Origin: Nitrospira sp. SB0677_bin_15 | Lineage (GTDB): Bacteria; Nitrospirota; Nitrospiria; Nitrospirales; UBA8639 | Assembly: GCA_009842645.1 (NCBI GenBank) | Contig: VYFB01000068.1 | Location: 10,904-74,903, forward strand | DNA: 64,000 nucleotides | Direction: 5' to 3' | Program-made: the position numbers and the translations under genes | The notes under the pieces: model-generated | The model's database searches: none | Seen by the model: the letters and a program-made list of their open reading frames with translations, nothing else | Told to the model about the DNA's origin: nothing | Shown: in pieces, positions 10,665-47,977 of the stretch | How positions within the stretch are numbered: position 1 is the first letter of the stretch | Layout of the letters: every line of letters starts with the position of its first letter

Positions 10665-10702
10665 CCCCCTCACCCCAGCCCTCTCCCTCGTTGGGGAGAG
10701 GG
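10665..10702. repeat. Family A hairpin repeat (copy A2)
   Basis: ccccctcaccccagccctctccctcgttggggagaggg, starting 8 nt after the zinc-ribbon gene stop. Same orientation as A1. Confidence 0.8.
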
Positions 10703-10747
10703 TGTGAATGCCTCTACCCCACCTGACCTCCCCTTACAAAGGGGAGG
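10703..10747. repeat. Family C repeat (copy 1)
   Basis: gaatgcctctaccccacctgacctccccttacaaaggggagg. The reverse complement is similar to 44790-44837. Confidence 0.6.
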
Positions 10748-13961: not shown

Positions 13962-13975
13962 GGCAGCTTCCCGGG

Positions 13976-19956: not shown

Positions 19957-21240
19957 GTGAAGAGCGCGACGTCGAAAAGATTATTTGCCCATGCACAAAA
20001 ATATATTCCAGGCGGGGTGAACAGCCCGGTCCGCGCGTTTCGGTCGGTCGGCGGGCATCCGTTGTTCATCACGCGTGCGCAGGGCGCCACGGTGACCGAC
20101 GCGGACGGCAACGTGTATCTCGATTACGTGGCCTCGTGGGGACCTATGATCCTGGGACACGCCCATCCGGGAGTGGTGCGGGCCATCCGGCGCGCTGCCG
20201 GCGCGGGGACCAGCTACGGCGCGCCGACAGTACAGGAACTGGAGCTGGCGCGGATGATATGTGAGGCGTTCCCCTCCGTCGACAAAGTTCGACTCGTGAG
20301 TTCCGGCACGGAAGCCGTGATGAGCGCCATCCGGGTGTCGCGGGGCTTCACCAAACGGGACGCCATCCTCAAATTTGAAGGGTGTTACCACGGCCACGCC
20401 GATCACCTGCTGGTGAAGGCGGGGTCCGGGGCCGCGACACTGGGTCTGCCCGACAGCCCGGGCGTGCCCAAGGCTGCGGCACGTCAGACGCTCACCGCGC
20501 CGTATAATGACATCGAGTCGGTCAAGAGCCTGGTGAGAAAACATTGGCGGGATCTGGCTTGTATCATCGTCGAGCCGATCGCAGGCAACATGGGCGTGGT
20601 GTTGCCGCAACCGGACTTTCTCCGGCAACTGCGCACGCTCACCAGGAAACACGGCATCCTCCTGATCTTCGACGAAGTGATTTCCGGATTTCGCGTGGCC
20701 TATGGAGGAGCGCAAACCCTGTACGGCATTGCCCCCGATCTCACGTGCCTGGGGAAAATCATCGGCGGGGGATTGCCGGTCGGCGCCTACGGCGGGTCAA
20801 AGCAGATCATGGATCTGGTGGCGCCGGCAGGTCCTGTGTACCAGGCCGGGACCTTGTCAGGGAACCCGTTGGCCGTGACCGCGGGAATCGAAACGTTGAA
20901 ACGACTCAGGGCCTCCGGGGTATATGAAAAATTGGAACGGCGAGGCAACCAGTTGGCGCAAGGCTTGGCGCAAGCAGCCAAGCAGGCCAGCGTCCCGTTT
21001 TACCAAACGCGGGTCGGTTCCCTGCTGGGTGGGTTCTTTACGGAAGGCCCTGTTGTGGATTACCAATCAGCCAAGAAATCCGATACGGCCCGATACGCCA
21101 AGTTCTTCCACCAGACGTTGAAACGCGGGTCCTACTTCGCCCCCTCCCAATTCGAAGCCGCTTTCGTCTCCACCGCGCATACCGCAGCAGACGTCGAACA
21201 AACCATCAAGGCCGTGCACGAAGCGTTTCGGCGGTTGTAA
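19957..21240 (+). CDS. hemL: Glutamate-1-semialdehyde 2,1-aminomutase
   Basis: 427 aa with GTG start. KYIPGGVNSPVRAF, and DEVISGFR with a downstream lysine region. Confidence 0.92.
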   Translation: MKSATSKRLFAHAQKYIPGGVNSPVRAFRSVGGHPLFITRAQGATVTDADGNVYLDYVASWGPMILGHAHPGVVRAIRRAAGAGTSYGAPTVQELELARMICEAFPSVDKVRLVSSGTEAVMSAIRVSRGFTKRDAILKFEGCYHGHADHLLVKAGSGAATLGLPDSPGVPKAAARQTLTAPYNDIESVKSLVRKHWRDLACIIVEPIAGNMGVVLPQPDFLRQLRTLTRKHGILLIFDEVISGFRVAYGGAQTLYGIAPDLTCLGKIIGGGLPVGAYGGSKQIMDLVAPAGPVYQAGTLSGNPLAVTAGIETLKRLRASGVYEKLERRGNQLAQGLAQAAKQASVPFYQTRVGSLLGGFFTEGPVVDYQSAKKSDTARYAKFFHQTLKRGSYFAPSQFEAAFVSTAHTAADVEQTIKAVHEAFRRL

Positions 21241-21252
21241 TCTTGTCCCAAG

Positions 21253-21590
21253 CTGTCATTCCTGTATGTGTTCAGTCATTCGTTGACCCATTTCATCCTC
21301 TCCTTCTGTCATCCTCGACATCTTTAATCGAGGATCCAGGGTTGTTTTTTGTCGTTGTAGCTGCCGCATCTCATGCGGCTTGGAGAAGCCAAGGGCAGGA
21401 AGCGCCATGAGGCATGTCCCGGACTTTAATCCGGGATAGCGCGGCTACACATGCAAAAAGAAAACCCCTGGATCCCCGATCGGAGTCGGGGATGACGGAG
21501 GGGGAATTGTCAACGAATTAGTGAACATCTACAATTCCCGACCATACAAACTGGATCCCCGATTAAGGATGTCGGGGAGGAATTCAGCGT
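21253..21590. repeat. Composite nested-palindrome (MITE-like) element at the left border of the defence island
   Basis: Inverted family B ends (21253-21287 ctgtcattcctgtatgtgttcagtcattcgttgac / 21507-21535 attgtcaacgaattagtgaacatctacaa). They enclose inverted ttaatcgaggatcca / tggatccccgat...cggggat motifs and gtagctgccgc...gcgcggctac. Related blocks at 47801-47930. Confidence 0.6.
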
Positions 21591-21836
21591 CGTCCTCCTG
21601 CACAGACGGGGATCTTGAAACAGCACAATGGGAGAATCCTTCATATGCGATTCAAAATGACGGGCATAAACGAATTTTTCATCGATGACTAATTGAAAGT
21701 TTAAGGCATGACTGATTGAAAGGTTTCAAGGAGCTGATTAGACGACCAATTACAAGGTTGGGGCAGGTAAGGTTAGTGCCCAGACGCCGTCGCCGAAACT
21801 CACGGAGTGTCTAAAACGCCACAGCCACTTGGACTT

Positions 21837-24647
21837 TTACGCGGCGGTTGCGCGTGAATGGCGCGCCAGGATATCAAGGATGTCACCTGGAGTCTTGGAC
21901 ACGGCCCAAGTCCAGCGACCGAAGCCGCCATGCGCGTTGACGGCGTTGACCCATTCTTCGAGAAACCGGCGCTTGGTTCGGTCTTGCTCGCTGTCCTGAC
22001 CCTTGATTTCCAATATCAACATGTCACCGGACGTGAGCCTGATGAGAAAATCGGGCCGGTATTTCCGCACCACGCCGCGATAGACGTAGAGCACCTCGAA
22101 GCCGAGGTGATCGTTTTTCACCCAGGCCGCTACCGCGGGGTTGTGATCAAGCTCGAAGGATTCTGACGCTTCCCACGTACTGTCATAGACACAAAAATTG
22201 ATATGACTTTTCGCGGTATGCTCGCAGGGCTTACCGGTGTACCATGTCCCCATGTCACCGGTTGAACGGATGGGATGGTCGCGATCAAACACCGGCTCCA
22301 GCTTCTCGGTATTCTCGAAGCGGATTGCTTCCCAGATGTGTTGGACCACCTTGGTCATATTGAGCGTAATGATGAGACGGCGCTTGAGATCGTCGTGAAC
22401 GAATAAGGCGGGAGTGACGTTGATTCGATCCGAACGAATGAACTGCTCGACCAGCCGAACCAACTGGGCCAGCAGGAAAGCCTTACCACCCTGCCAGTTC
22501 GTCTGCATTTGGTCGTAAACATCCCGAGCGGTTTCGAAGATGATCCGTTGAGTTCTGAATTCCTTTGCCAGTTTTCCCAGATCGATAGCCCCGATTTTTG
22601 TAACGTCCGGTTTGCCCTCGACAACCGAGGCAAGCTCCGCAAGTTTGGCTGTCTGGCTGGCGTCGAGTTCCAAGGTCGTCACCCTTTCCAAATCCAGGGA
22701 AAGGTGCGGGTGGTAGACGTGGTCAATACGGATGACGTTCGGCCAGGAAATTTCAAAAGCCGCTTTGTCCGCTACCGGCTCGATAGCCGTTTTCGGTTTC
22801 GGTGGTTCCGGGATGACGCCCTCCGCCGACTCATGCGGCAGGAAAGTGAACGGCACACCGAAAATATTGACGTGCTCCGGTTTGAACAAGCCGGTGTCCG
22901 GGTCGGCCTCGTAGGCGGTCCGTCGCAAGCCGCGTCCGACGACCTGCTCGCAGAGCAACTGACTGGTAAAGGCTCGCAAACCCATGATATGGGTCACGGT
23001 CTTTGCATCCCAACCCTCGGACAACATCCCCACGGAAATTACCTTCTGTATCTGCTCGCCGGGTTTTCCCACTTGGCCGACGGTGTCCACTTGCAAGCGC
23101 AGTCGCTCGGCTTGTTGTTTTTTGGTCAACTTCGGTTTTTGGTCGTCGTCCCCGCCTTCCTTGCTTTCGTCGGCAGCGATCTCTGCAATCGGCTCCTCGG
23201 CGGCCTCGGCTTGCCCCAGTACCTTGGAGTCGATGTGCAAGGTGCGTTCCGGATCGCAAAGCTCGTCGATGTGGACCTTACGGTGATCCAGCGCATACTT
23301 GATTCGAGCCGCAGTCTCGGTTCGGTTGGCGACCGTAATCATGACCGGCGGCGTCTTGAATCCGGTAGCGTCCCAATCCTTGGTGGCTTCGCGCCAGTCG
23401 TACCCTAGCAGGTAATAACCGTTCATGACCAAATCCGGCAGCGGTTCTTCGGGCTTGGCTTTCCTGGTCAAGTCGTCTTTGACCTCCGGGTCGTTGTAGA
23501 TATGGTACAGGCGGGATTTGTAGGTCCTGGCATCAGGCACCGCGTCGTCGCGAATCACGACGCGCGGGGTCTTGACCAATCCGGATTCAATGGCATCGTT
23601 CAAGCCGAAGTCACTCACGATCCAGTCGAACAATGCCTCCTCGGAACTCCGTTTGCCTGATGGCGCAAAAGGCGTGGCGGAGAAGTCGTAGCAAGTGAGA
23701 ATGCCACGTGCCTTGTTTATCCGGTCGAGACCGCCCACCCACTTGGTCGCTTCCTCGATGTCCTCCTTGGCAACGCCTCTGACCTTGGATTCGGCGGGAA
23801 CCCGCCAGGCGTGATGCGCCTCGTCGTTAATGACCAGGACGTTCCGGGCACTCGCCAAGTCGTCCAGCACTTCGCGGACGTAGGCTTCATCGCTCTTGGT
23901 TCCGCGCTTATCCACGCTACGCTTTTTGTCGATCTTCTCCTCGGTTTCCCGGTTGAGCGCGTGCCAGTTGCGGACGATAACCTTGCCTTGGCGCAGTTTG
24001 TCCAGCAGGGACGACGGCACAATGGAGAACTTTTCATAATAGTTTTCCGAGTCGGACGGTTCGAGCACTGCAAGACGGCTTTTAACCGTCAAGCCGGGGG
24101 CAATGATCAAAACATTCCGGGCAAATCGCGCATCCTGCGGATAGGTCACCTTGTTCAGGATATGCCAGGCGACGACCATGGCCATGACGATGGTCTTGCC
24201 CGAACCGGTCGCCAGCTTTGCGCACAAACGTTGGAACGGCCCGCCGTCAGACTGAGGCTCCACGCCGACCTTATCGGCGGCGGACGCTTCCGCAAGCCAG
24301 ATCAGCGTCTCGGCAGCTTCAAGCTGACAAAAGAATAACCGCCGATTATCGAACTCTTCAGGGTTTGTCCAATGTTCCAGCAGTCGCTTCGTGATGCCCG
24401 TGACGCCCGGATACCCGGCTTCGCGCCACGCCCGTACGCGTGGCCGGATCAGATTGACGAGGGGAATTTCAACGAAATGACCTGGGTCATCGAACGATCG
24501 GGAGCCCTCCGAGGCAATGACGTATCCGGCCGGCCGCCGGTCTTCCACAAGCGAGAAAGTGCGTTGCTCATGGTCATAACTCCAGTACTTCGTTGGTTCC
24601 TCGTAAGGTGAGTTGATGATGAGGCGGTCAATAGTCGCCCGTGCCAT
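21837..24647 (-). CDS. res: Type III-like restriction enzyme Res subunit (SF2 helicase + C-terminal PD-(D/E)xK)
   Basis: 936 aa. KLATGSGKT, INDEAHHAW, C-terminal YRPDFLIRL...LILEIKG nuclease motif. N-terminus IINSPYEEPTKYW is typical of this Res family. Confidence 0.85.
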   Translation of the reverse strand: MARATIDRLIINSPYEEPTKYWSYDHEQRTFSLVEDRRPAGYVIASEGSRSFDDPGHFVEIPLVNLIRPRVRAWREAGYPGVTGITKRLLEHWTNPEEFDNRRLFFCQLEAAETLIWLAEASAADKVGVEPQSDGGPFQRLCAKLATGSGKTIVMAMVVAWHILNKVTYPQDARFARNVLIIAPGLTVKSRLAVLEPSDSENYYEKFSIVPSSLLDKLRQGKVIVRNWHALNRETEEKIDKKRSVDKRGTKSDEAYVREVLDDLASARNVLVINDEAHHAWRVPAESKVRGVAKEDIEEATKWVGGLDRINKARGILTCYDFSATPFAPSGKRSSEEALFDWIVSDFGLNDAIESGLVKTPRVVIRDDAVPDARTYKSRLYHIYNDPEVKDDLTRKAKPEEPLPDLVMNGYYLLGYDWREATKDWDATGFKTPPVMITVANRTETAARIKYALDHRKVHIDELCDPERTLHIDSKVLGQAEAAEEPIAEIAADESKEGGDDDQKPKLTKKQQAERLRLQVDTVGQVGKPGEQIQKVISVGMLSEGWDAKTVTHIMGLRAFTSQLLCEQVVGRGLRRTAYEADPDTGLFKPEHVNIFGVPFTFLPHESAEGVIPEPPKPKTAIEPVADKAAFEISWPNVIRIDHVYHPHLSLDLERVTTLELDASQTAKLAELASVVEGKPDVTKIGAIDLGKLAKEFRTQRIIFETARDVYDQMQTNWQGGKAFLLAQLVRLVEQFIRSDRINVTPALFVHDDLKRRLIITLNMTKVVQHIWEAIRFENTEKLEPVFDRDHPIRSTGDMGTWYTGKPCEHTAKSHINFCVYDSTWEASESFELDHNPAVAAWVKNDHLGFEVLYVYRGVVRKYRPDFLIRLTSGDMLILEIKGQDSEQDRTKRRFLEEWVNAVNAHGGFGRWTWAVSKTPGDILDILARHSRATAA

Positions 24648-24738
24648 TACGTCACCGCCGGCAGGAACAGCAATGGTTCAAGAAGGAAAATCAAAACAGA
24701 AAGATACATCTTACGCAGTTTATGGGGCACATCCAGAA

Positions 24739-25308
24739 TCACAAGGCCAAATCAGCAAAAGCCACTATAGGTCCCAAAAATTTCTTAATGTTAATACCCT
24801 CGTACCGTTCCTCTTCTATCTTTCCTGGCCTGCTTTTCACGGGCTGTTTATCAAGTCTCTCGTTTATTCTCTCACCGATAAGAACGTAACTCATACTTGG
24901 CGTCGGAATCGTTTCTCTGCTTTCAATGCGGCAAACAGCGAGGAGATACCCCAGTAGCGGACGTGATCTCCGTAACTGTTCTTTAGGATGACGGTTTCCA
25001 CCCAGAGTTTTCTTCAATTCGATAAACATCGCATGATACGCTTCTCCATTTTAGTAGATCAGCAGATAATCGCAGATCTTTTTCCAATCTCCCGTTTTCA
25101 GAACTGACAAATGGCCAAATTTCCTGGTGAACTGAATCGTGGTGAGAGAGTCAGGAACACCCGAGACGACCACTATCATATCTGGCTGGTTCTCATTTTT
25201 CTCCCGAAGAGTGATGTCGTTGCTGGTATTTGGTGCTGTTGCCAGAACCTTTCCATCCAACACGTTCTCTATCTGGAAGTTCAGAGTCGCCTTACCTTTC
25301 TGCATCAT
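24739..25308 (-). pseudogene. PD-(D/E)xK-like partner of the ABC ATPase, interrupted by one in-frame TAA
   Basis: ORFs 25051-25308 and 24739-25029 are in the same frame, separated only by TAA (25051-25053). The joined reading ...ICDYLLIY*NGEAYHAMFIELKKTLGG... has a D...ExK pattern. It aligns with CCDYFVTNNDSVFLIEETQ and the shared QPDM of the 47978-48445 protein. ATGA overlap with the ATPase stop. Confidence 0.55.
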
Positions 25309-26879
25309 GACTCAGTACCCCTCACTCGAGATGCCAGTTCATTCGAAGCACGGTTGATTTTGTCGATTGTTGTGTCAAAAATCGGCATTTCTACGCCAAA
25401 TTTATCTACTGCACATTTGGTTAGGCGGTTCTCTTCCGCGACGTACCCTCGAATTGAATCTGGTTCAAGGAAATCGTCTTCCTTATACCCAAGCTTCCTC
25501 ACCACTTTGTCTTTACCCTCAAAGGAGTTGCTTAGCATGATGAGATTGTTGATTTCCTTCACGAGATAGTCACTGTGAGTTGTAATCAAAACTTTCAAGC
25601 CAGTCCGTACCAATCGAGCCAACAGTCGTGCCAACAGAATCTGGTTGGTTGTATCGAGATGACTCTCCGGTTCGTCGATAATGAGGAGGTGATTTTTCTG
25701 AGCGACGTGACGTAAGAAGAAATACAAGTCGGACAACCCACGTGCCGAAGAGGAAGCAAGATGAAGCGGTATGCTGAAGCTGTGTTCTTTGTTGCGTGTT
25801 GTGGATTTGAATTTGATATCGTCACCTGAGCTTTTATAGTAACCCCTTATCATATCCTTTATCTCGTCAAACAACTTGTGTTCATGAAGCTCACTTGTCT
25901 GCTTTTGGAAATCAGATAAATTTCTGGTGTAATCAATGTTGTCTTTGATGGGAAGAGCATAGCGGCTGGTGGTTTTGTCGATCAGGAAAAATGGAGAAAA
26001 GTGCTTTCTGTTTTTTTCAGCTCCCACCTTCTGTAGCAAATCCACCAATTGATTCTTAGTAAAGTCGAGTTCTTTGTAGAAGAGCGAGATGCCAAATCGT
26101 TCAGCAGACAGGACGAATGGAGCCCAAAAAAGCTCTGGAAAGAGAAACCGAAGATAAAGGCGTGGAATTAAGAATAATGCCTCGTCGTCAAAGGATGAGT
26201 TGTGTTGCTTCTCAGTGCGGTCTCTGGTTAGAACAATTTTTTCACCGTTGTATCGTATGGAAAACACGTCTCCCGATGGAAATTTTTCTTCAAGAGAATG
26301 ATTTTTGGGAAACTCACCAATCAACTCAACGTTGAGCGAGGCTCTTTTGAAATCATCTGGTGAAGAACTGAACACACCATAAAGAGCTGTTTTTGAAAAA
26401 CTTTGGGCCAAACTCTTAATCACTTTCTTTCGTTCTTGATCAAGATTCTCTCGATCTATGGTCCATGTGGCTTGGCCTTCCTTCATTGCTCGCCGGACCA
26501 ACATCCCTATTCTTTGCGGCAAGTTGCGCCATTTGTCGTGCAGCGGCTTCCCTTCTTTCCCGCTTCCCACATCCTCAACGTACTCGTCTTCGTCGGCGTA
26601 ATGCTCTCGATCGGGATACTCATCATCAGGGTCGGCCTCATTTGTGTCGTCATTCTGCGCGATGTCATCGTTGCCTATAAGAAAATGTCTAGCATTTGGC
26701 CACGAGTACCACATTTTCAAGAAGCCGTATAGCGTATATACTAGATACGTCTTGCCCGTATTGTTACAGCCAGCAACGATTGTGAGATCTCCCAATTCCA
26801 ATTCAGCGTGATTAACGGGACCAATATCTGTGAATAGAAATTTCACTGATGGAGACTGATGATTGTTGGTGGGCTCCAT
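25305..26879 (-). CDS. ABC-type (AAA_15/AAA_21-like) ATPase
   Basis: 524 aa. Walker A AGCNNTGKT, acidic insert NDDTNEADPDDEYPDREHYADEDEYVED, signature-like SSSARGL, Walker B LLIIDEPESHLD, H-loop ITTHSD. AT-rich. Confidence 0.75.
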   Translation of the reverse strand: MEPTNNHQSPSVKFLFTDIGPVNHAELELGDLTIVAGCNNTGKTYLVYTLYGFLKMWYSWPNARHFLIGNDDIAQNDDTNEADPDDEYPDREHYADEDEYVEDVGSGKEGKPLHDKWRNLPQRIGMLVRRAMKEGQATWTIDRENLDQERKKVIKSLAQSFSKTALYGVFSSSPDDFKRASLNVELIGEFPKNHSLEEKFPSGDVFSIRYNGEKIVLTRDRTEKQHNSSFDDEALFLIPRLYLRFLFPELFWAPFVLSAERFGISLFYKELDFTKNQLVDLLQKVGAEKNRKHFSPFFLIDKTTSRYALPIKDNIDYTRNLSDFQKQTSELHEHKLFDEIKDMIRGYYKSSGDDIKFKSTTRNKEHSFSIPLHLASSSARGLSDLYFFLRHVAQKNHLLIIDEPESHLDTTNQILLARLLARLVRTGLKVLITTHSDYLVKEINNLIMLSNSFEGKDKVVRKLGYKEDDFLEPDSIRGYVAEENRLTKCAVDKFGVEMPIFDTTIDKINRASNELASRVRGTES

Positions 26880-26914
26880 GGTGTGTTCCTTTGTATGGTG
26901 AACGTCAGATAACC

Positions 26915-26989
26915 TGCAATCTTTGTCATCCTCAGGCTTTTAAAGTCCTGATCGTCAATGACTTTGACCATGATGCGTTTGTACTCACC
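26915..26989 (-). other. Relic of a Mod C-terminal coding end (copy 3, decayed)
   Basis: Reverse-strand reading GEYKRIMVKVIDDQDFKSLRM..., compared with the mod end SGENKRIAVKIIDDRGIESLKIIEVE*. Confidence 0.55.
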
Positions 26990-27293
26990 GACCTCACGTA
27001 GATCGTCTCAGTGGATTAGAGAATCGCCTTGCGGCGGATGTAATTCTGGATCTGTTCAACACCCTGCCAACTGACAAGATCAACTTTGCATTCGAATATC
27101 GTCGCCAACTCTGCCTCCATCCAGGTTATGTCGAATAGAGTATGAGGGCTTCTTCCTCAAAACGTGCCAACCCGTCCATGTCGCTTTCGGGAGACCGAAA
27201 TCGTCTTGTAGCGAACAGGGCCAGTTCTGTCACCTGCCACCGTATACAAAAGGCGGCGATTTCGTCTTGCGGTATGGTCACTTGTGAGTTCAT
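26990..27293 (-). pseudogene. Decayed MntA-type nucleotidyltransferase (second copy)
   Basis: Nucleotide-similar to 28593-28903. It reads MNSQVTIPQDEIAAFCIRWQVTELALFA... An 8-nt deletion removes the GS motif codons, then a -1 shift and TAA follow. ATG overlaps the DUF2235 stop (ATGA). Confidence 0.65.
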
Positions 27294-28476
27294 TGCTTTG
27301 CCGCTTTAGTCGATTTTGGAATTTTGTATTCCCGTAACCCGCTGATTCCTTCTATCTTGTTGCTGAGGTTGCCGTTATTCAATAGTAGTTTGAAACTGAG
27401 TCCGCGCAGTGCTGGTGGCCGGTAGCCGGTAACTTTATCAAATCGCTCTTTGACGCATTGATACAGAATAGGGAGGTCATTTAGATTCTTGCTTGGTCGG
27501 TCATTGACGTTGACCCGAATCATGCGAGGTTCCTGAGCCCCGATTTCTGTCAGCAAGCCTGAATGAGTGTGCAAAATGCCTTGGATCATCGGATTGATCG
27601 CAATGTCGTCTACGGTCAGCCCCGCCATCGCTTTGCCTTGTTGTACAAGCAAATTCTTGATACCAGCTTGATTACCTGGTTTTATAGCAATATCTTTACC
27701 CAAAGTCGCTTCGCACTGTTTGATCATAAACCGAAGCGCTTGATCAGACAGTCCATCAAACCAATAACCCCCACCAATATCGCTGTGGACGCCGGGGAAC
27801 CAGACCTCCAAAATGCGGTCTGGGTTCTTCCCATCCTTGTTAATTAGCGTTGGATCAAAAGGCACGCGGTCTTCATCAAGTGATACGATGTGCACAGCCC
27901 GCTGCACTCGTGCATTCAAAGTACCATTCTCGAACACCACGTCGCTACTAATCTTCTCACCTTTTCGGTGTATGCCGTTCATGGCGGCGACGGTGTCGAA
28001 TACACCCAAGAAAGAGACGGTGCACTTATTCTTGTCGTTAAGGATCTGGCTGACGAATTTCCGAGCCAATGCCGCACCTCGGCTAAAACCAAAACCACGA
28101 TTCGATCATTGTCCTCATAACATTTCTCGAAATCATTTCGTGCCTCGCGAAGAATCCTGGCTGCGTCCCCCCATTTTGGTGCCACAGTCATATTTACGAA
28201 CTTCTGAGCTTTTGAGATCAGCCAACCCACCAACGGGACCCATTGGCCGTCTTCACGGGTACCGATGCCGTTGTAGTAGTGAGTTATCTGATCCTCGCCG
28301 TTTAGTGTTTTTGTCGAGGAGTTGTCGGCCTCTATTCCTCCACCCATCAGGATGTGGAGTTTGAGTACGTTGCTTACACTTTCATCTTCGGCAAACTGTT
28401 TGGCATCGCTCGGTTCATTACCAGTGCCGTCAAAACTAAAAACGAGAGTTTTGTGTATCCGTTCGTTTTTTGACAT
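27290..28476 (-). pseudogene. DUF2235 (Tle1-like alpha/beta hydrolase) gene with a frameshift
   Basis: N-terminal part (27979-28476) reads LVFSFDGTGNE...YYNGIGT. C-terminal part (27290-28069) reads ARKFVSQ...GVFDTVAAM...FPGVHSDIGGGY. The frames join if the run aaaa at 28091-28094 (tttt on the coding strand) gains one base, restoring RIVVFGFSRGAALARKF. Confidence 0.75.
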
Positions 28477-28514
28477 TGGTACTCTCCTATCAAGCCCTTT
28501 GTTATTATTGGCCC

Positions 28515-28592
28515 TCACTCTATCTCCACAATCTTCAAACTCTCGATGCCCCGGTTGTCGATGACTTTGACAATGCTGCGTTTGTACTCACC
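28515..28592 (-). other. Relic of a Mod C-terminal coding end (copy 2)
   Basis: Reverse-strand reading GEYKRSIVKVIDNRGIESLKIVEIE* (TGA at 28515-28517). About three quarters nucleotide identity to 29790-29867 by eye. Confidence 0.65.
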
Positions 28593-28903
28593 GACCTCAC
28601 GTAGATCGTCTTGGCGGATTGGAGGATAGATTTGCGGCGGATGTAGTTTTCGCTCTGTTCAACGCCTTGCCAACTCACAAGATCAACTTTGCGTCCGAAT
28701 ATCGTCGCCAACTCTTCCTCCATGCGGTCTAGATCGAACAGGGTATGTCGGGCTTTTTCCTCAAAACGTGCCAATACGTCTACGTCGCTTTCGGGACCGA
28801 AATCGTCGCGTAGCACGGAACCGAACAAAGCCCGTTCCGTCACCCGCCACCGTTTACAAAAGGCGGCGATCTCGTCTCGCGGTATATTGATATGCGCGTT
28901 CAT
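28535..28903 (-). CDS. MntA-type minimal nucleotidyltransferase (no HepT partner)
   Basis: MNAHINIPRDEIAAFCKRWRV..LFGSVLRDDFGPESDVDVLA (GS...DxD pol-beta NTase motif). ATG 28901-28903 overlaps the TIR-like gene stop (ATGA). The last ~20 codons read out of frame through the Mod-end relic. Confidence 0.75.
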   Translation of the reverse strand: MNAHINIPRDEIAAFCKRWRVTERALFGSVLRDDFGPESDVDVLARFEEKARHTLFDLDRMEEELATIFGRKVDLVSWQGVEQSENYIRRKSILQSAKTIYVRSVSTNAALSKSSTTGASRV

Positions 28904-29790
28904 GCCTGAAATGCCCGGTTCGCGTCGACTGAGATTCCGGTGGTCTTTAGCTCTTGAATAAGTTTTGACTGCCAACCTCCAGAGGCATCCAATGGAATGT
29001 ACACAACGCCCGCATAATCAGATGGTATCTCCACGTCTCCCTTGGTCAGGGCGCAGACGCCCTCTCGGCCAAGCCGTCCGATGAAAAACCCCAATTCGAA
29101 AATCACGTTCTGTCGTGCCCGTGGGCTGAGGTTGTTCCTGTCGCTCTGAAGCGAACCGGCATCGTCGGGTGTCAGCAAAGCTACGGCAAACTGCGCATCC
29201 GCATGATATTCGAACTTCTCGATGATTGTGCGGCCCGCATTCGGTTGTTCCTGAAGTATCACTGGCTTGAGACCCAGTTTTTCTAGGAATCTCGACACTT
29301 GATCTCTGGTGCCTTCATCTCTGCCGTGAATGACAAAGACTTTATCCGAATTTGGTGGGGCGTTTATTAGTGCCCCCGAAGATTTTAGCGTCTGCTCTCC
29401 GTCTTGCTGTTTTTTCTTTCGGGTCCTAGAAGACGTTCTCTGATTGTCATCTTCCCAATACTCCTCGACCTCTTTAATCATCGATTCTAGGAATGACGCC
29501 GCTAATTCCAATCCCCTAACGTAGGCTTCTTGGCACACAGAAGGGATCGATAACATGTCAAGGAACACATCATCAGGAGTATCCCATGTCTTTGTTGGAT
29601 CATAATTGATATTGTTGAATCGATGAATCTGGGCTGAGTCGTCCCCAAAGGTATTGCTGATGGCGAGCCCTGTATCTATTTTCCACCCCTCAAACTGCGG
29701 TGAATCATAAGATAATTGCTTCAATTCAGGTATCGCATCTAGGACCTCCTTCAGACGTTCTATCGCCTTGGCTTTGGGCTGTCGCGCCAT
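28900..29790 (-). CDS. TIR-like (CAP12/PycTIR-type, PF10137-like) domain protein with an unassigned N-terminal domain
   Basis: C-terminal KVFVIHGRDEG...FAVALLTPDD...RARQNVIFELGFFIGRLGR...PSDYAGVVY matches the TIR-like nucleotide-binding family. ATG 29788-29790 overlaps the mod TGA by 1 nt. Confidence 0.72.
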   Translation of the reverse strand: MARQPKAKAIERLKEVLDAIPELKQLSYDSPQFEGWKIDTGLAISNTFGDDSAQIHRFNNINYDPTKTWDTPDDVFLDMLSIPSVCQEAYVRGLELAASFLESMIKEVEEYWEDDNQRTSSRTRKKKQQDGEQTLKSSGALINAPPNSDKVFVIHGRDEGTRDQVSRFLEKLGLKPVILQEQPNAGRTIIEKFEYHADAQFAVALLTPDDAGSLQSDRNNLSPRARQNVIFELGFFIGRLGREGVCALTKGDVEIPSDYAGVVYIPLDASGGWQSKLIQELKTTGISVDANRAFQA

Positions 29791-32378
29791 CACTCCACCT
29801 CGATGATTTTCAAGCTCTCGATGCCCCGGTCGTCGATGATTTTGACCGCGATGCGCTTGTTCTCACCTGACACAAAGGGCAGGGAGGTGGTGCCGCGATA
29901 GGTTTCGATCAGGTCCGTGTCGATTTCGGCTTTGAGGTTCTTGGCAAGTTTCGCCCAGCCGTCTTCGTCACCGGCCATGGGGAAAAATACCTGGCGGGGG
30001 AACAGACTGCGCCCGTCATAGTCAGGGTCCAGCATCCACATGGCAATCCTGTCCCTGCCGCCGGATTCCACGTTGCCGGTTTTGGTGTTGTAGTAGTCGA
30101 AACCTCGGACCGAGACACGGAGCTTGCCTTTGTCCTCCCTATCCGGGACCCCTTCAAGTTCCACGTCCGGCTGGCCGATTAGCCAGAAGCTCTCGTTGCT
30201 TGCGCGCTTTTTCTTGAGGTCATTGGTCAGCAGGTCGGCGTTCATCTGTGCCTTCAACAGTGTGACGCCGGGCCAGTTGGTCTCGTCGATGTCCTTCGCC
30301 GCCTCGGGGTCGAACTGGAAGGCTGCGAAAATAATGATCGTGGGCTTGGGAACAAGGGTCTGAGCTTCCTCAATGGCGAGGGCTACCTGCCGTTGTTCCA
30401 TCGGCGCGTGGTCCGGTCCGAACGAGATCACCACGCGTTCGGGATTCTCGGCTGTTCCTCCGTCACGAATGCGATCCGCGCCGGTGCTATCAGGCCGGGT
30501 TTCTCCCTCGGCGTGCAGCCATCTGGTGCCCGGCAATGGCTCCAACCGCGCAAACGAGATGCGTTGCCCTGCCTTGCCACGTATGCCGGTTTTGAACAAC
30601 TCGTCGCGCCAATCAGCTTGCCGTAGAGTCTGTCCTGTACGCGCCACGGAGTGATCCGCGGGCTGTTTATCGACGATTTCGTCCAAAGGCTTCACCGCTG
30701 GAGCGGGAACCGCTTCGACCGTGAATGGTCCGGTGACACGTGTTTTGGTCTTGTCCACTAGCGGCTGGTCATGGCGCGTTATGGCAGAGGACGGCTCTTC
30801 GTTTGCTAAAATTTTGGGCGAAACTTTGGGGACAGTCTTATAATTGAAGCCACTCCCTACGCCTTCTTGGGAATGAGCCAATTTGTAGTAGTCGTAAACG
30901 GAAGTCATCAGGCGCTGTTTGGTCAGAGTGAGGGCCACCCGGGAGGTATCGCAAGTGATCCAGCGACGGCCCCATTGCTCGGCAACGTGAGCGGTGGTGC
31001 CGGAGCCGCAGGTGGGGTCAAACACCAAATCGCCCGGGTCGGTGGTCATTAAAATGCAGCGTTGAATTGCTTTGATGGAAGTCTCTACAACATATTTTTT
31101 TTCACTTGGAAACATCTGTGCGGGCCAGATGTTGTTAATTCTTCGGCCCGGCACTTCATCTTCGTATTTCTTCCATCTGAGTGAATCCTGTCCCTCCAAG
31201 GCTTCCAGTCGTCCCAATTTCGCCAGTTGATCCAATCCCTCCGGATTGGAAATAGACCACTGTCTATTCTTAGCACAGTGAAAAGTTCTGTTGTTGTACA
31301 CATAGGGTTCCGATCGCCCGGTAGTGGAAACACCTTGCGAATCCAGACCGGTGCGTTCATACAGACGCGCGCCTAGGGGCAAATATCTGTCAGGATCGAA
31401 ACGCTCTTCGTCGGTTGGCTTTCGACAACTTCCGTCGGGTAATTCCACCATGACGTGCCAACTGAAGTAGTCAATGATTTCCGTGCGGGTCAGGGTCTCA
31501 TACAATTGCCGATACTTCACGCGGTCCTTGTCCTTTGCGTACCACAGCAAATAATCGGCTACTTGTGGTAAGTGAGCCGTAGAACTGCCACTCGTCGTCG
31601 CGAAGGATATGGTCGCCACCCGATTTGTCGAACCAAAAACATCATCCAAGACCATACCTGCACGGTGCACGTTCTCATCGCCAATCTGCACAAAACACGA
31701 TCCACTATCCACTAACAACTCTCTTGCCAACAACAGGCGGTCCCTCAGATAAGCAAGATAAGAGTGGATGCCGAGTTCCCATGTATCGCGGAAAGCGCGG
31801 ATGGTCTCCGGCTCCTGGGTCAGATCCTCGTCCTTGCCGTCGGTCACGTCTCGTTTGTTCACAAACGGCTGGAAGTTCGAACCGTAGCGGATGCCGTAGG
31901 GCGGGTCGATGTAGACCATCTGGACCTGGCCGCCAAGTCCTTCCTTTTCCAACAGGCTGTTCATGACCAGCAGACTGTCGCCTGCGATCAGGCGGTTGGT
32001 CCAATTGTGCCGGTGTTTGTAGAACTCGATGGCTTGGCGGATCGGCGGGTTTTCTTCGGGCGCGGCGAACAGCGCCATTTGCGGTTTCGCGCCATTTCGT
32101 TTCCGCACGGCTTCGACAATGGTGCGCGGGTCGATGCGCTCGTGAACGTGAAGCGAGACGGTCGGTACTTCGAAGGACGTGTGCTCCGCCTTGCCGGCCC
32201 ATTGCAGTTGCGGATCAAGGTGAGGATCGTAGGCGTAAGTCTTCTTGCCTGAATCCCTGTCCGTATCCGGCGTCACCAAGCCAACCGGCGGATTGTTCAC
32301 GCGCTCTTTGTCAGTATGCGCGTAAGTCTCGATGTCCCTTTTCGCGCTCTTCTTAGGACTTTTCTTTGGCTTCGCCAT
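29790..32378 (-). CDS. mod: Type III-like DNA methyltransferase (beta-class N6A/N4C)
   Basis: 862 aa. VYIDPPYG (motif IV) precedes FDPTCGSGTTAHVA (motif I). Confidence 0.9.
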   Translation of the reverse strand: MAKPKKSPKKSAKRDIETYAHTDKERVNNPPVGLVTPDTDRDSGKKTYAYDPHLDPQLQWAGKAEHTSFEVPTVSLHVHERIDPRTIVEAVRKRNGAKPQMALFAAPEENPPIRQAIEFYKHRHNWTNRLIAGDSLLVMNSLLEKEGLGGQVQMVYIDPPYGIRYGSNFQPFVNKRDVTDGKDEDLTQEPETIRAFRDTWELGIHSYLAYLRDRLLLARELLVDSGSCFVQIGDENVHRAGMVLDDVFGSTNRVATISFATTSGSSTAHLPQVADYLLWYAKDKDRVKYRQLYETLTRTEIIDYFSWHVMVELPDGSCRKPTDEERFDPDRYLPLGARLYERTGLDSQGVSTTGRSEPYVYNNRTFHCAKNRQWSISNPEGLDQLAKLGRLEALEGQDSLRWKKYEDEVPGRRINNIWPAQMFPSEKKYVVETSIKAIQRCILMTTDPGDLVFDPTCGSGTTAHVAEQWGRRWITCDTSRVALTLTKQRLMTSVYDYYKLAHSQEGVGSGFNYKTVPKVSPKILANEEPSSAITRHDQPLVDKTKTRVTGPFTVEAVPAPAVKPLDEIVDKQPADHSVARTGQTLRQADWRDELFKTGIRGKAGQRISFARLEPLPGTRWLHAEGETRPDSTGADRIRDGGTAENPERVVISFGPDHAPMEQRQVALAIEEAQTLVPKPTIIIFAAFQFDPEAAKDIDETNWPGVTLLKAQMNADLLTNDLKKKRASNESFWLIGQPDVELEGVPDREDKGKLRVSVRGFDYYNTKTGNVESGGRDRIAMWMLDPDYDGRSLFPRQVFFPMAGDEDGWAKLAKNLKAEIDTDLIETYRGTTSLPFVSGENKRIAVKIIDDRGIESLKIIEVE

Positions 32379-32383
32379 GGTTC

Positions 32384-32402
32384 ATCCTCAGATATTGAGG
32401 AT
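32384..32402. promoter_or_regulatory. Perfect 7-bp inverted repeat overlapping the mod ribosome-binding site
   Basis: atcctca-gatat-tgaggat, 6-24 nt upstream of the mod ATG. On the coding strand the GAGGA of the right arm is the likely SD. Confidence 0.3.
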
Positions 32403-32503
32403 TCTACAAGACCAGGAATCTGCCGCTAGGCTATGAGAACGGTTGCTCTTCATTCTTGGTGTGAGGAAATGAGGGGCATGGTCGTTTTTTCTGTCATCCC
32501 GTT

Positions 32504-32923
32504 CTAAGAGGTATTTCTCTTCATGAGAACGGTGTATCCATCTTGCTCAAAATGGTGGTCATTAGTCAGGATCTCTGTAATTGATTCCGAATCCATAGCG
32601 TTCATGGAAATACAATCTTGTAAACTATATCCTTTGTCAGGTCGTTCCTCGTATCGCCTCAGGCCCCTTTGAAAGGAATCTCGGGATTGGGGAATAACTT
32701 TTACATTTGGATTACCTAAAATCCCGCGAACGACTCGTACCACTATGTCTCGCAAACGCGGCCTTTTTGATAGAGCTGTCAAAAATTCCGTAAGTACCTC
32801 CTCCGTGGTCACAAGCCGTGCATTTCCCAATTGTTCCCGTGCATCTTCCGCCGCTTGTCTCCATTGGTCTTTTGGATTTGCAATTGCAATCCAATATACG
32901 GTGTCCACAAACACTTTTTTCAT
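32504..32923 (-). CDS. PIN-domain ribonuclease (VapC-like)
   Basis: 139 aa. Acidic quartet context FVDT, TTEEVLTEF, LQDCIS, TNDHHF. ATGA overlap with the upstream ORF. Confidence 0.8.
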   Translation of the reverse strand: MKKVFVDTVYWIAIANPKDQWRQAAEDAREQLGNARLVTTEEVLTEFLTALSKRPRLRDIVVRVVRGILGNPNVKVIPQSRDSFQRGLRRYEERPDKGYSLQDCISMNAMDSESITEILTNDHHFEQDGYTVLMKRNTS

Positions 32924-33846
32924 TCTTCTTCCCCGCCGTACAGATAATGGTCCAATCTATCCGTAAGGTCGGGGGGGAGCCTATCCCACTCCTCATCTGG
33001 TACGTCTTTGGCAATCTTAGCTATTACATCCTCAATGCGCGGAGCGCTTGAATCGAAAATCGGATCTTCATCCCTGACAAGCTTGAGGCTATCCACATTG
33101 ATGATTCGCTTTAGCGTTCCTTGCGGAGTAAATTCACCATGGCCTCGTACTGCGAGGTGCACAAACTGGTGTTCCTTGAGAGCGGTTGTCACTTCTGATT
33201 CCTGCTCTTCCGTAAATGTAACGAAAGCATTCGTTCGTTCGTCGAGCCAGATCTGAAACTTTCTTTGCCGGACATCGGCTTCAAGGACACGCCCAGTTAT
33301 ATTTACTTCGTCTTCATATGGCTGCTCGGCCAACTCTCTTAGACGCTGACGTTCAAGCTTTGCAACTTGCGCTGGATGATTCCCACGCTGTGCGAATCCT
33401 AACGCATCATTCTCTGAGAGACTTTCTCCCCAACGAGCGTATTCAGGTAGAAGTTCCTTTGGACATTCTTCTGGTAGCTGTGTGTTGTCATGAACTGCTC
33501 TGAACACACGATAGATAACATCTACGGCTTCGGTTAGTTCCCGAGCTATTTCTGGTTCCTGGTCCAAGTAGTCGAGTTGCACCGGCTCTTCAATAGACAC
33601 TTCGAGTGGAATGACGGTGCTGCCGTCTTCGATCGTGCGGAAGCACAAACGCGTTCGGTCTTCAAAGTTTGACGGCAATCGTTCACGACCTGGATTTGTC
33701 CTCCGCCAAATGACTTTGGCCGTCTCGGCAACCATCTTCTGGAAGTGTTCGAGTTCGCGCAGTGCGGTGAGATCAAGTGCGTGATCGCTGAAACGTTCGC
33801 CATGGAAGTGCAGTCTTACCACTTCTTTCCATTGCTTGGTCATCAT
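32920..33846 (-). CDS. Hypothetical 308-aa protein in antitoxin position upstream of PIN
   Basis: Long ORF with ATG-ATG at 33841-33846, overlapped by the TGA of a Mod-end relic. No recognised domain. Acidic C-terminal tail ...DEEWDRLPPDLTDRLDHYLYGGEEE. Confidence 0.6.
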   Translation of the reverse strand: MMTKQWKEVVRLHFHGERFSDHALDLTALRELEHFQKMVAETAKVIWRRTNPGRERLPSNFEDRTRLCFRTIEDGSTVIPLEVSIEEPVQLDYLDQEPEIARELTEAVDVIYRVFRAVHDNTQLPEECPKELLPEYARWGESLSENDALGFAQRGNHPAQVAKLERQRLRELAEQPYEDEVNITGRVLEADVRQRKFQIWLDERTNAFVTFTEEQESEVTTALKEHQFVHLAVRGHGEFTPQGTLKRIINVDSLKLVRDEDPIFDSSAPRIEDVIAKIAKDVPDEEWDRLPPDLTDRLDHYLYGGEEE

Positions 33847-33920
33847 TTCACCTCCCCCACCTTGAGGCTAATTCCACAGTCATCAATGCCCTTCACAACG
33901 ATGCGCTTCAATTTGTTCAC
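33843..33920 (-). other. Relic of a Mod C-terminal coding end (copy 4)
   Basis: Reverse-strand reading VNKLKRIVVKGIDDCGISLKVGEVK*, with its TGA overlapping the ATG of ORF308. Confidence 0.5.
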
Positions 33921-33944
33921 GGGCGGGAGCTGTTTCCGCCGGAT

Positions 33945-34187
33945 TTATTCGTCATCATCGTCGTCATCTTCATCCTCGGCTTCCAGGGCGGCTTGGCGCA
34001 TTTGTTCTTCCATGGCGTTGTGGATCAGCATCCGGATGAACATCGAGATGACGGAGCCTTTTTCCAGTGTCCCGCCGGGCGGGACGGCGATCCGGCCTTC
34101 TTCGACCATTTTGTCCAACCATTTTTTCTGGTCGGGGGTCACGTGGAGTGGAATTTCAATGAGCGGAATCTTGCCGAACATATCCAT
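33945..34187 (-). CDS. Small protein, possible ribbon-helix-helix fold with poly-acidic tail
   Basis: 80 aa from ATG 34185-34187, preceded by AAGGAGG. IEIPLHVTPDQKKWLDKMVEEG..., tail EAEDEDDDDDDE. Confidence 0.45.
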   Translation of the reverse strand: MDMFGKIPLIEIPLHVTPDQKKWLDKMVEEGRIAVPPGGTLEKGSVISMFIRMLIHNAMEEQMRQAALEAEDEDDDDDDE

Positions 34188-34207
34188 AAGACAACCCTCC
34201 TTATTCA

Positions 34208-34351
34208 AGGAACCTCTGATTTAATGCACTATCGGGCGCATGGCTGCGTTGTGTCCTCGCTCAACCTTCACCTATCTCTATGATAAGCCTCAGGTTTCGC
34301 TCCGGGACGCCTTGCCCTGCATCCCGCTATCACAATAAATCAGAGGTTCCT
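34208..34351. mobile_element. 144-bp MITE-like element (copy 1) with perfect 16-bp terminal inverted repeats
   Basis: aggaacctctgattta ... taaatcagaggttcct. The interior is near-identical to 46264-46395. Confidence 0.65.
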
Positions 34352-34375: not shown

Positions 34376-35191
34376 TTAACGGGATAATCTGAGCACGTCG
34401 GCCATGCCGTACAGGCCCGGGGGCTGATGGACGACCCACTCTGCGGCGCGCAGGGCGCCGTGCGCGAACGGGTCGCGGTTGTGGGCGCGGTGCGTGATCT
34501 CGATGCGTTCTCCGGGTCCGGCATAGAGCACGGTATGGTCACCCACGATGTCTCCGGCTCTCACGGTCTGGATGCCAATTTCGTTTTTCGTGCGTTCCCC
34601 GATGAGGCCGTGACGTGCGTAGACTCCCGCTGCCTCCAGGTCCCAGTCTTTGGCCGCGGCCAGGACTTCGGCGAGTTTCAGCGCGGTGCCGCTCGGTGCG
34701 TCCTTCTTTTTGTTGTGGTGCGCATCAATGATTTCGAGGTCGTAGTCATCGCCGAGTGCTTGAGCCACCTTTCCGATTATCCGGAGCAGCACCGTAATCC
34801 CGACGCTCATGTTGGGCGCCTGAACGCAGGGGATCGACTCTGCGTGTTGGCGAAGTTGGTCCATGTCGGTAGAAGACAATCCCGTGGTGCCGATGACCAT
34901 GGCCCGTTTGTGCTGGACGGCTTGCGCCAAATGGTGCAGTGTGGCTTCCGGTGCGGTGAAGTCGATGACGACGTCGCTTTGGGACAAGGCCTGCGTGAAG
35001 TCGTCCGTCAACGCGACGCCGAGCGGTCCGCAGCCGGCCACGTCCCCGGCGTCTTTGCCGAGGGCCGGGTGTCCTTTTGCTTCCGTAGCGCCGGTCAGTT
35101 GCAGCCGGGCCGATTCGTTGACAAGGGCGACGAGGCGTTTGCCCATTCGTCCGGCGGCGCCGGTGATCGTGACGTTGATCGGGGAATTCAT
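34376..35191 (-). CDS. dapB: 4-hydroxy-tetrahydrodipicolinate reductase
   Basis: 271 aa. VTITGAAGRMGK Rossmann motif and HHNKKKDAPSGTA motif. Confidence 0.92.
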   Translation of the reverse strand: MNSPINVTITGAAGRMGKRLVALVNESARLQLTGATEAKGHPALGKDAGDVAGCGPLGVALTDDFTQALSQSDVVIDFTAPEATLHHLAQAVQHKRAMVIGTTGLSSTDMDQLRQHAESIPCVQAPNMSVGITVLLRIIGKVAQALGDDYDLEIIDAHHNKKKDAPSGTALKLAEVLAAAKDWDLEAAGVYARHGLIGERTKNEIGIQTVRAGDIVGDHTVLYAGPGERIEITHRAHNRDPFAHGALRAAEWVVHQPPGLYGMADVLRLSR

Positions 35192-47971: not shown

Positions 47972-47977
47972 CATCGT

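Follow-up and report, generated by a model that had tools for sequence, protein, structure and literature searches.

Organisation of the Type III locus

We analysed a 64,000-nt stretch of DNA from Nitrospira sp. SB0677_bin_15 (GCA_009842645.1, contig VYFB01000068.1, forward-strand positions 10,904-74,903), a sponge-associated bacterium represented by a metagenome-assembled genome (MAG). This stretch is referred to below as the window, and coordinates are counted from its first letter. The window contains a Type III restriction-modification (R-M) operon between dapB and hemL, in which the methyltransferase gene mod and the restriction gene res are held apart by modules of further genes, termed cargo, and in which short copies of the mod 3' end, termed relics, recur ahead of cargo modules. 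Read along the minus strand, the order is dapB, o87, relic 4, ORF308, PIN, mod, TIR, MNT, relic 2, DUF2235, an MNT pseudogene, relic 3, ABC ATPase, its partner and res, followed by hemL on the plus strand. An earlier sequence-only reading of this DNA had described mod and res as co-oriented and about 5.1 kb apart, on an island lying between hemL and dapB. Both statements hold: mod and res lie 5142 bp apart on the minus strand, and the island is flanked by hemL (19957-21240, plus strand) and dapB (34376-35191, minus strand), both recognised from their translations. The hemL flank is shared by L062, L083, L084, L089 and L095, and the dapB flank by L001, L081-L085, L089 and L095-L097, where L numbers denote related loci.

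The mod gene (29790-32378, minus strand) encodes an 862-aa Type III methyltransferase that matches PF01555 (3.5e-29) and the PADLOC model MTase_III (1.8e-156) and is related to EcoP15I Mod (PDB sequence matches 4zcf_A, 2.9e-13, and 6k0w_B, 1.6e-15). The res gene (21837-24647, minus strand) encodes a 936-aa Type III restriction subunit with a ResIII domain (PF04851, 4e-9), weak matches to PADLOC REase_III, and GSGKT, DEAH and C-terminal D...EIK motifs recognised by eye in the translation. A PDB sequence search with Res gave no match; with the Res proteins of 70+ related loci it shares 57-92% identity.

All cargo in the window lies on the mod/res strand, either between the two genes or just upstream of mod. 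The upstream module comprises ORF308 (32920-33846; PADLOC PDC-M32A, 6e-46) and a PIN-domain gene (32504-32923; PF01850), which are paired also in L056, L095 and L098. Directly after mod, with a start codon that overlaps the mod stop (TGATG), lies a gene with a TIR domain of the CAP12/Pycsar type (28900-29793; PF10137, 3e-39; PDC-S35, 7e-81), followed by an MNT nucleotidyltransferase gene (28535-28903; PF01909 and PDC-S09). The next module consists of a gene for a DUF2235/Tle1-like hydrolase (27290-28476; PF09994) and a second MNT copy (~26996-27293). The hydrolase gene is split by a 1-nt frameshift near 28060 into two overlapping open reading frames (ORFs) that match the N- and C-terminal parts of PF09994; its intact homologues have 395-398 aa and are 78-82% identical, and other assemblies (P0125, P0166) carry the same truncated products. 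The second MNT copy, whose ATG overlaps the DUF2235 stop, is a pseudogene with ~82% DNA identity to the intact MNT gene, indels and stop codons. The HepT family (PF01934) is absent from the window, and a family scan and comparison with relatives found both MNT copies without HepT.

The module nearest res contains an ABC-type ATPase of 524 aa (25305-26879) belonging to the PD-T4-4_A family (PADLOC, 1e-105; Pfam AAA_15 and AAA_21) and 91% identical to the L081 gene. Its partner, a PDC-M47B/PD-T4-4_B-like gene with a frame of ~192 codons (24739-25308), is broken by one in-frame stop into ORFs of 85 and 96 aa. The L081 counterpart, of 192 aa, aligns with it over a single frame at 73% identity and matches PDC-M47B. 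The cargo had been named in the sequence-only reading as ORF308 plus PIN, a TIR-like gene plus nucleotidyltransferase, DUF2235 plus nucleotidyltransferase, and an ABC ATPase, identities with which the family matches agree.

Recurring copies of the mod 3' end

The recurring sequence corresponds to the last 30 codons of mod (29790-29882, minus strand). A profile hidden Markov model built from the last 30 residues of 79 Mod alleles was run against all six frames of the window. It returned the true mod end at 62 bits and exactly three more matches, all on the mod strand. Relic 2 (28515-28598), the best kept, has 26 codons and a stop (match 28518-28598, 41.8 bits; stop 28515-28517). Relic 3 (26908-26995; match 26924-26995, 19.8 bits), ahead of the ABC module, is decayed in its 3' half and has lost its stop. 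Relic 4 (33843-33920) lies upstream of the intact mod and retains ~24 codons and a stop (match 33849-33911, 15.9 bits; stop 33843-33845). In 300 dinucleotide-preserving shuffles of the whole window, the maximum score was 13.0 bits and the median maximum 5.9, and none reached the 15.9 bits of the weakest relic, which rules out chance similarity. A repeat finder working without the profile recovered an 82-nt three-copy family at 26908-26989, 28511-28592 and 29786-29867. Since the scores exceed those of all shuffles and the copies are recovered independently, the relics are real, and the earlier claim that the last ~26 mod codons recur three more times on the same strand passes the shuffled control.

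The relics meet their neighbours in different ways. The relic 4 stop overlaps the ORF308 start (ATGA), an arrangement that had been likened to the TGATG overlap at the mod/TIR junction; both overlaps are present as described. The DUF2235 ATG lies ~40 nt past the relic 2 stop, and upstream of relic 2 the natural end of MNT is fused out of frame into the relic.

Relic 2 shares 80% identity with the resident mod end, and relics 2 and 3 are not independent of one another. Their 5' halves lie inside a ~350-bp direct repeat (28555-28903 versus 26945-27293) that comprises the MNT gene and the first ~40 nt of the relic. Identity between the repeat copies is ~82% overall and 97-100% at the MNT/relic junction, then drops to ~55% in the relic 3' half and thereafter to background. 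Such a sharp change of identity within the relics fits a crossover inside the relic. Across loci, relics number three in the window and one or two per locus in L001, L038, L081-L086 and L095-L098.

Cargo at the mod-res junction of related loci

We sampled 80 genome loci, many of them from sponge-associated MAGs belonging to more than 10 phyla, and 80 metagenome loci; the distance statistics rest on the 68 genome and 64 metagenome loci (132 in total) in which mod is followed by res. Among the genome loci, the mod-res gap ranges from -7 to 6798 bp: the genes overlap or abut in 12, are separated by a short gap in 6, and enclose 0.3-6.8 kb in about 50. Among the metagenome loci, 37 have abutting genes, 7 a short gap and 20 more than 300 bp of intervening DNA. 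The classic operon, in which mod leads directly into res, is thus absent from the window and present in 12 of 68 genome and 37 of 64 metagenome loci. Over both sets, mod abuts or overlaps res in 49 of 132 loci, and ~70 carry 0.3-6.8 kb of co-oriented defence cargo. The cargo rate is ~74% in the sponge-rich genome sample versus 31% in the general metagenome sample. The mod-res junction is a landing place for defence modules, and the suggestion that the R-M locus acts as a defence hotspot that accumulates cassettes agrees with these counts: a uniform layout, with mod always abutting res and no variable cargo, was not what the loci showed.

About half of the genome loci with cargo have a first cargo ORF whose start lies on or at the mod stop, and the TIR gene follows an intact mod in 30 loci. 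Cargo in the family includes TIR with MNT, MNT-HepT, PD-T4-4-like ATPase with its partner, ORF308 with PIN, IetA/IetS, PDC-M41, NsnB/HEC-03-like ATPases, a multiubiquitin-E1/JAB cluster, and an RmrA-like M78 peptidase with DUF4411.

Mod is at least 76% identical in all of the 120 best matches listed, and 62-90% identical across many phyla. At 62-85% identity it occurs in MAGs of Nitrospirales, Poribacteria, Latescibacterota, Bryobacterales, Gammaproteobacteria, Dehalococcoidia, Spirochaetia and even Methanobacteriota, and its closest relatives (~70-90%) come largely from MAGs of sponge symbionts. Because Mod is conserved across phyla and its closest relatives are largely sponge-associated, these comparisons imply that the operon has probably spread horizontally, and recently, within sponge microbiomes.

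Two other aspects of the family's cargo were recorded. One is a recurrent mod-res block of 4.7-4.9 kb (L037 14619-17540; also L039, L042, L043 and L065) that contains an AAA_15 ATPase, a multiubiquitin-domain protein, a JAB plus ThiF/E1 protein and small ORFs, and by its predicted domains resembles a ubiquitin-like conjugation defence cluster. The other concerns remnants of ORF308. In L012 (12494-12745) and L035 (12467-12718), the mod frame lacks a stop and continues into what is left of the ORF308 C-terminus, with an intact PIN gene behind it, and L028 (12594-12968) has a partial ORF308 (residues 180-304) after mod. These remnants indicate that ORF308 was largely deleted in place.

Orthologous loci in Nitrospira

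The orthologous Nitrospira locus takes its simplest, basal form in L089, L091 and L092, where it reads dapB-o80-mod-TIR-MNT-HepT-res-hemL and every gene overlaps the next. TIR-MNT-HepT is thus already present between mod and res in the basal state of the lineage. Other loci carry stacks in which relics separate the modules: TIR-MNT, relic, ABC (L081, L095); TIR-MNT, relic, M78-DUF4411 (L001); TIR-MNT, relic, M78-DUF4411, relic, ABC (L097); TIR-MNT, relic, M78-DUF4411, relic, DUF2235-MNT (L084); TIR, relic, DUF2235-MNT, relic, M78-DUF4411 (L085, L086); TIR, relic, TIR_2, then MNT-HepT (L083); and TIR-MNT, relic, o324-MNT-HepT (L038). The upstream arrangement of relic 4, ORF308 and PIN is common to the window and L095-L097. 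The orthologues of relic 4 score 16.9 bits in L095 and L096, and the L097 copy is decayed, with an in-frame stop.

Normal MNT alleles end in ...TIYAA and a stop that overlaps the HepT start, and in basal alleles HepT lies directly upstream of res. In the stacked alleles, HepT is replaced at the MNT end by mod sequence from about codon -30, and the resulting MNT/relic junction is homologous throughout the stacked Nitrospira loci. The complete MNT-HepT pair is present in L083, L089, L038 and L098.

A gene for a DUF559/Vsr-like endonuclease (PF04480 and PF18741) was seen just upstream of mod in L081 (9510-9986), L083 (9519-9983) and L084 (1472-1882), and fused to Mod in proteins of 1030-1035 aa (P0047, P0053). 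In L083, a 168-nt 3' fragment of the same gene lies just downstream of res (18052-18219). With the fragment downstream and the gene upstream, direct repeats flank the whole mod...res unit of L083, and these could mark a former circular or tandem junction.

Correspondence between relic variant and cargo

For comparison of relics, the last 45 nt of each relic or true mod end were taken together with the next 45 nt. The 3' halves of the relics and the 45 nt downstream cluster by cargo, not by locus. Relic 2 is nearest to relics ahead of DUF2235 in L084 and L085 (0.88-0.89 identity). Relic 3 is nearest to relics ahead of ABC in L095, L097 and L081, with which its 3' half and spacer are orthologous, and the ABC relics have a 4-5-codon extension in common with true mod ends ahead of ABC in Latescibacterota (L002, L003). 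For relic 4, the best counterparts are relics ahead of ORF308 in L095 and L097, and the true mod end of L098, also ahead of ORF308, ranks second. A further group (0.83-0.94) is formed by the M78 relics found in L001, L084 and L085.

The genes following mod were tallied across 183 sequences. Five of the eight relic-preceded cargo types, namely ABC, ORF308, M78(/DUF4411), IetA and o324, lie behind a relic in part of the genomes and behind an intact mod elsewhere; ORF308 stands directly after an intact mod in L046, L056, L143 and L098, and IetA in L024 and L036. Since relics cluster by cargo and the same cargo is found behind intact mod genes, modules do travel with a mod end, and the ends derive from different carrier mod alleles. 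The proposal that cargo travels with, or recombines at, the mod 3' end is supported by these five types and by module orders that vary as each cargo keeps its own relic variant. The related proposal, that the copies are ends of different mod alleles and not local duplications, stands for the 3' halves, which cluster by cargo, but not for the 5' halves of relics 2 and 3, which share a local duplication.

Homologues of DUF2235 that are 66-67% identical were also seen near related Type III-like operons with no relic, upstream of mod in L099 (7001-15176) and downstream of res in L101 (954-8176). Because these lack a relic, the association of DUF2235 with such operons is broader than the relic mechanism.

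Scars and a proposed route to stacked modules

Several loci retain more than a mod end. In L098, the order is mod, ORF308, PIN, res (codons 1-52), a mod relic (last 23 codons), AbiU2, MNT, MNT-HepT and res. In L043, a res fragment (codons 1-105) is followed after ~60 bp by a mod relic whose stop overlaps the IetA start (TAATG). Both loci show the join directly, as the residue of two complete mod-cargo-res units minus the inner res and mod. In L037, an internally deleted mod forms an in-frame mini-ORF of 55 codons (the first 32 and the last ~22); ABC with its partner comes next, then an intact mod, additional cargo and res, a layout that parallels relic 4-ORF308-PIN-mod in the window. L118, a non-sponge metagenome contig, has a 10-codon relic with an ATGA overlap ahead of an M78-like gene. 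By our count, relics formed independently about six times; beyond the Nitrospira lineage, only a few of the 160 sampled loci contain them (L037, L043, L118).

Relics decay. In-frame stops interrupt them in L038 and L097, and those of L001 and L081 are strongly decayed and score low. Relics joined to MNT do not continue its reading frame, nor do they possess their own start codon. Displaced modules in the window are decaying as well, as seen in the DUF2235 frameshift, the second MNT pseudogene and the nonsense codon in the ATPase partner. The relics thus look like scars of deletion and recombination, not working parts.

The best explanation, to which we assign a probability of roughly 0.7, is that cargo-bearing Type III alleles fused, lost the internal res and mod, and were then reshuffled by homologous recombination. 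In the Mod/Res family the first cargo gene normally starts on or right after the mod stop, so that a cargo module is physically tied to the 3' end of its mod allele. In the proposed pathway, two mod-cargo-res alleles would first be joined, through unequal or illegitimate recombination or through single-crossover integration of a circularised incoming copy. Deletion of the first allele's res and the second allele's mod would then leave a mod stub of ~22-32 codons ahead of the second cargo. In Nitrospira, one such junction would have placed mod sequence, from codon ~-30 on, behind the end of the MNT antitoxin gene, with loss of the HepT toxin gene. From then on, the combined MNT and relic sequence, the true mod end and res would have provided homology for swaps, insertions and reordering of modules. 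Ordinary recombination between alleles and deletion, not dedicated cassette machinery, are most likely at work. The gene layout, relic matches beyond chance, the hotspot, the deletion scars spanning res and mod, the cargo-specific relics and the shuffling from strain to strain are seen directly in the loci; from them we infer the order of events, the recombination pathway and any co-expression of the modules.

Several observations weigh against this explanation. In all of the approximately six independent events, the relic 5' boundary lies 10-32 codons from the mod stop, and none is longer. Single random deletions would usually leave longer pieces, and randomly placed end points would not produce such a pattern. 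Short relics most likely result from stepwise trimming halted at putative translation or expression signals of the cargo, a view that fits the retained stop/start overlaps and the L037 mini-ORF. The tandem intermediate, mod-cargo-res-mod-cargo-res, was not seen in the sampled loci. Across the 183 sequences, no intact mod was found directly before DUF2235, TIR_2 or AbiU2, which occur only behind relics. For DUF2235, the closest homologues (78-82%) all lie behind relics in Nitrospira loci, and no relic/DUF2235 junction turned up when metagenome contigs were scanned for its exact pattern. Most cargo-bearing loci, including many stacks of several modules in other phyla and the 4-7-kb stacks of L010, L039 and L065, show no detectable relic, so other routes to stacking must exist. 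Finally, the data come mostly from MAGs, and strain mixtures could in principle affect the module order in the window; the chromosome-level or long-read assemblies L001 and L083 show the same kind of stacks.

The possibility that the mod 3' end is the best-conserved patch of the gene, and for that reason a preferred crossover site, was considered and rejected. Its mean pairwise identity is 0.68-0.70 versus 0.79 in the best windows of the gene; not being the gene's best-conserved DNA, it is no obviously preferred substrate for homologous recombination.

Alternative explanations

The alternative that survives best, although we consider it unlikely, is that relics are kept because they function: the last ~25 mod codons would carry a ribosome-binding site, a translational-coupling context or a promoter for the cargo, and deletions into them would be selected against. 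This would account for short relics exactly ahead of cargo and is compatible with an origin as scars. It draws support from the short length of all independent relics (10-32 codons), from the stop/start overlaps kept at relic 4/ORF308, before IetA in L043 and before the M78-like gene of L118, and from the L037 mini-ORF, which keeps its native start and the last ~22 codons directly before ABC. A function is hard to reconcile, however, with MNT-linked relics that are out of frame and lack a start codon, with a DUF2235 ATG ~40 nt beyond the relic stop, with the in-frame stops of L038 and L097 and with the lost stop of relic 3. Promoter and terminator scans over the locus, moreover, found sites no more numerous than in shuffles.

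A more far-reaching idea builds on the fusion and reshuffling of alleles. The mod 3' end, here together with MNT, might serve as a portable docking sequence, and the Type III operon might behave as an integrase-free 'defence integron', in which cargo is added at the mod end, archived downstream and reloaded into the first slot. We regard this as speculative and doubtful. If it were true, older modules would be poorly expressed archives pushed downstream; recombination between the true mod end and a relic would remove whatever modules lie between them and return an archived system to the first slot, the expressed one; and sponge-symbiont populations would gain rapid, reversible switching of second-line defences.

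A true integron-like system, with the mod end as attachment site and a site-specific recombinase that inserts and excises cassettes of relic plus cargo, appears highly improbable. Modules bounded by a recurring sequence do reorder between strains, and every module retains its own copy of that sequence. In contrast to an integron, however, no integrase or recombinase gene was found in or beside the locus, either among the window ORFs between 19 and 37 kb or in the gene tables of orthologous loci. Relic boundaries vary between events (-10 to -32 codons), some scars include res 5' fragments, relics decay freely, and most cargo-bearing loci of the family have no relic. The repeat finder gave no inverted pair within 21.8-34.3 kb, a dedicated attC model not having been run. 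A search for a recombinase or a conserved core at relic boundaries had been proposed in the sequence-only reading; with no recombinase and with differing boundaries, nothing site-specific is indicated. Neither tRNA nor structured RNA lies at the island: apart from a tRNA-Gln at 17.5 kb, the window gave no Rfam match. Among the related loci examined, insertion sequence elements occur only in L087 and L098. The L087 element (13170-14332) is a transposase pair of the IS3 family (HTH_Tnp_1 and rve) that lies between mod and a Z1-domain gene and res; the L087 operon is closely related but sits in surroundings rich in transposases and not beside dapB.

Local duplication of the resident mod 3' end by slippage or in tandem, with unrelated genes inserted later behind the copies, could draw on the ~350-bp direct repeat shared by relics 2 and 3 with MNT and on the 80% identity of relic 2 to the resident end, but it is scarcely tenable given that relic 3' halves are closest to same-cargo relics elsewhere, that the ABC relic has an extension typical of foreign mod alleles preceding ABC, that the nearest true end to relic 4 precedes ORF308 in L098, and that the same cargo follows intact mod genes elsewhere.

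Comparison with known systems

Defence genes embedded within other immune operons are known, a classic case being prrC inside the Type IC hsd locus EcoprrI. The window and ~70 related loci conform to this pattern in having co-oriented extra defence genes between the genes of an immune operon.

A guilt-by-embedding survey used the hosts Hma, BREX, DISARM and Type I R-M for gene discovery, raised linked transfer and co-regulation as ideas, and left the origin of embedding open, mentioning only a 'genomic sink' idea (Payne, Hughes, Fineran & Jackson, bioRxiv 10.1101/2024.01.29.577857). Window genes match four models from that survey (PDC-S35, PDC-S09, PDC-M32A and PDC-M47B), PD-T4-4_A is also a defence family, and relatives of the locus nest IetA/IetS, PDC-M41, NsnB/HEC-03-like, RmrA-like M78 and E1/JAB-multiubiquitin genes. 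The present host differs in being a Type III system, outside the four hosts named in the survey's text and methods, and the survey reports no host-gene remnants ahead of embedded modules, whereas here scars document the route. Literature searches found no description of Type III mod-res cargo or of methylase-gene stubs ahead of embedded modules, in line with the earlier impression that such a mechanism had not been described for Type III R-M.

The closest parallel to the relics is found in the orphan cdiA-CT/cdiI modules of contact-dependent growth inhibition (CDI) and the orphan rhs-CT/rhsI modules of Rhs loci (Poole et al. 2011, PMC3150448; Jackson et al. 2009, cited there). As in those arrays, a full-length gene is followed by modules that each open with a fragment of its conserved 3' region, other bacteria carry these modules attached to full-length genes, module order varies between strains, and the common fragment provides homology through which a module could be reloaded onto the main gene. 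Joining to a full-length gene elsewhere applies here to ABC, ORF308, M78, IetA and o324, and was not found for DUF2235, TIR_2 and AbiU2. In CDI and Rhs loci, however, a variable toxin domain continues the frame of the fragment, and a cognate immunity gene follows; here the relics end at a stop or decay, the stub encodes nothing useful, some scars include the res 5' end and one module lies upstream of the full-length gene. Because its cargo consists of separate anti-phage genes and not of alternative C-termini, the window array is no member of the CDI/Rhs class.

As to the host operon, the PF01555 Mod, the ResIII-domain Res and the order of mod then res are those of EcoP15I-type Type III R-M, from which it differs in its divergent Mod and Res, the latter without a PDB match, and in the 5.1 kb between the genes. 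The MNT genes resemble those of MNT-HepT (MntA/HepT) systems in their PF01909 domain and in the overlapping HepT of basal alleles. The window copies depart from that system in lacking HepT, one being fused to a mod relic and the other a pseudogene.

Embedding is now used to discover immune systems, and how it arises has been left open. The present analysis extends embedding to a Type III R-M family common to many phyla and describes a locus that, with its relatives, preserves scars of the process in the form of mod stubs, and sometimes res stubs, ahead of modules. These scars point to fusion of alternative operon alleles followed by loss of redundant R-M genes, and provide a testable model for the building of composite defence loci. 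An orphan mod 3' end is also a simple sequence signature for module boundaries and candidate defence genes, and the Nitrospira loci offer a natural population for tracking how modules are gained, are reordered and decay. For the study of defence islands, the interest of the locus is that the assembly steps of a composite locus are preserved.

Further features of the locus and window

Between dapB and mod lies o87 (33945-34208, minus strand), a small ORF with an acidic tail, copies of which are 88-98% identical in L001, L062, L081-L085, L089 and L095-L097. Neither PADLOC nor the Pfam entries of the gene tables assign it to a family. ORFs of this kind (o87/o80; 80-87 aa with a poly-Asp/Glu tail) occur between dapB and mod wherever the region is present in the examined Nitrospira loci, for example in L001 (9583-9930), and may represent a candidate operon regulator.

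Long Mod alleles of 993-1009 aa were noted in L048, L052, L062, L084, L095 and L097. Against these, tblastn splits the window Mod into ~10-741 and ~755-862, ~450-475 nt apart and near window residue 745, which indicates a probable in-frame insertion of ~135-145 aa that is missing from the window Mod.

The island had been described as bordered by MITE-like (miniature inverted-repeat transposable element) repeats. Short interspersed repeats are indeed present at both borders, but copies occur elsewhere in the window and are not specific to the island: 34208-34339 matches 46264-46395 at 95%, 21242-21307 matches 49875-49940, and 21402-21464 recurs inverted at 47865-47927. Further repeats of this kind (41-132 nt, 77-95% identical, some palindromic) lie at 10128-10171, 10665-10705, 47932-47974 and 49921-49961. 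They behave like MITE or repetitive extragenic palindromic elements. Between 61310 and 63008, towards the window's far end, direct repeats (53-82 nt, 62-94% identity, spacing ~0.7-1.6 kb) point to paralogous genes or to repeated domains.

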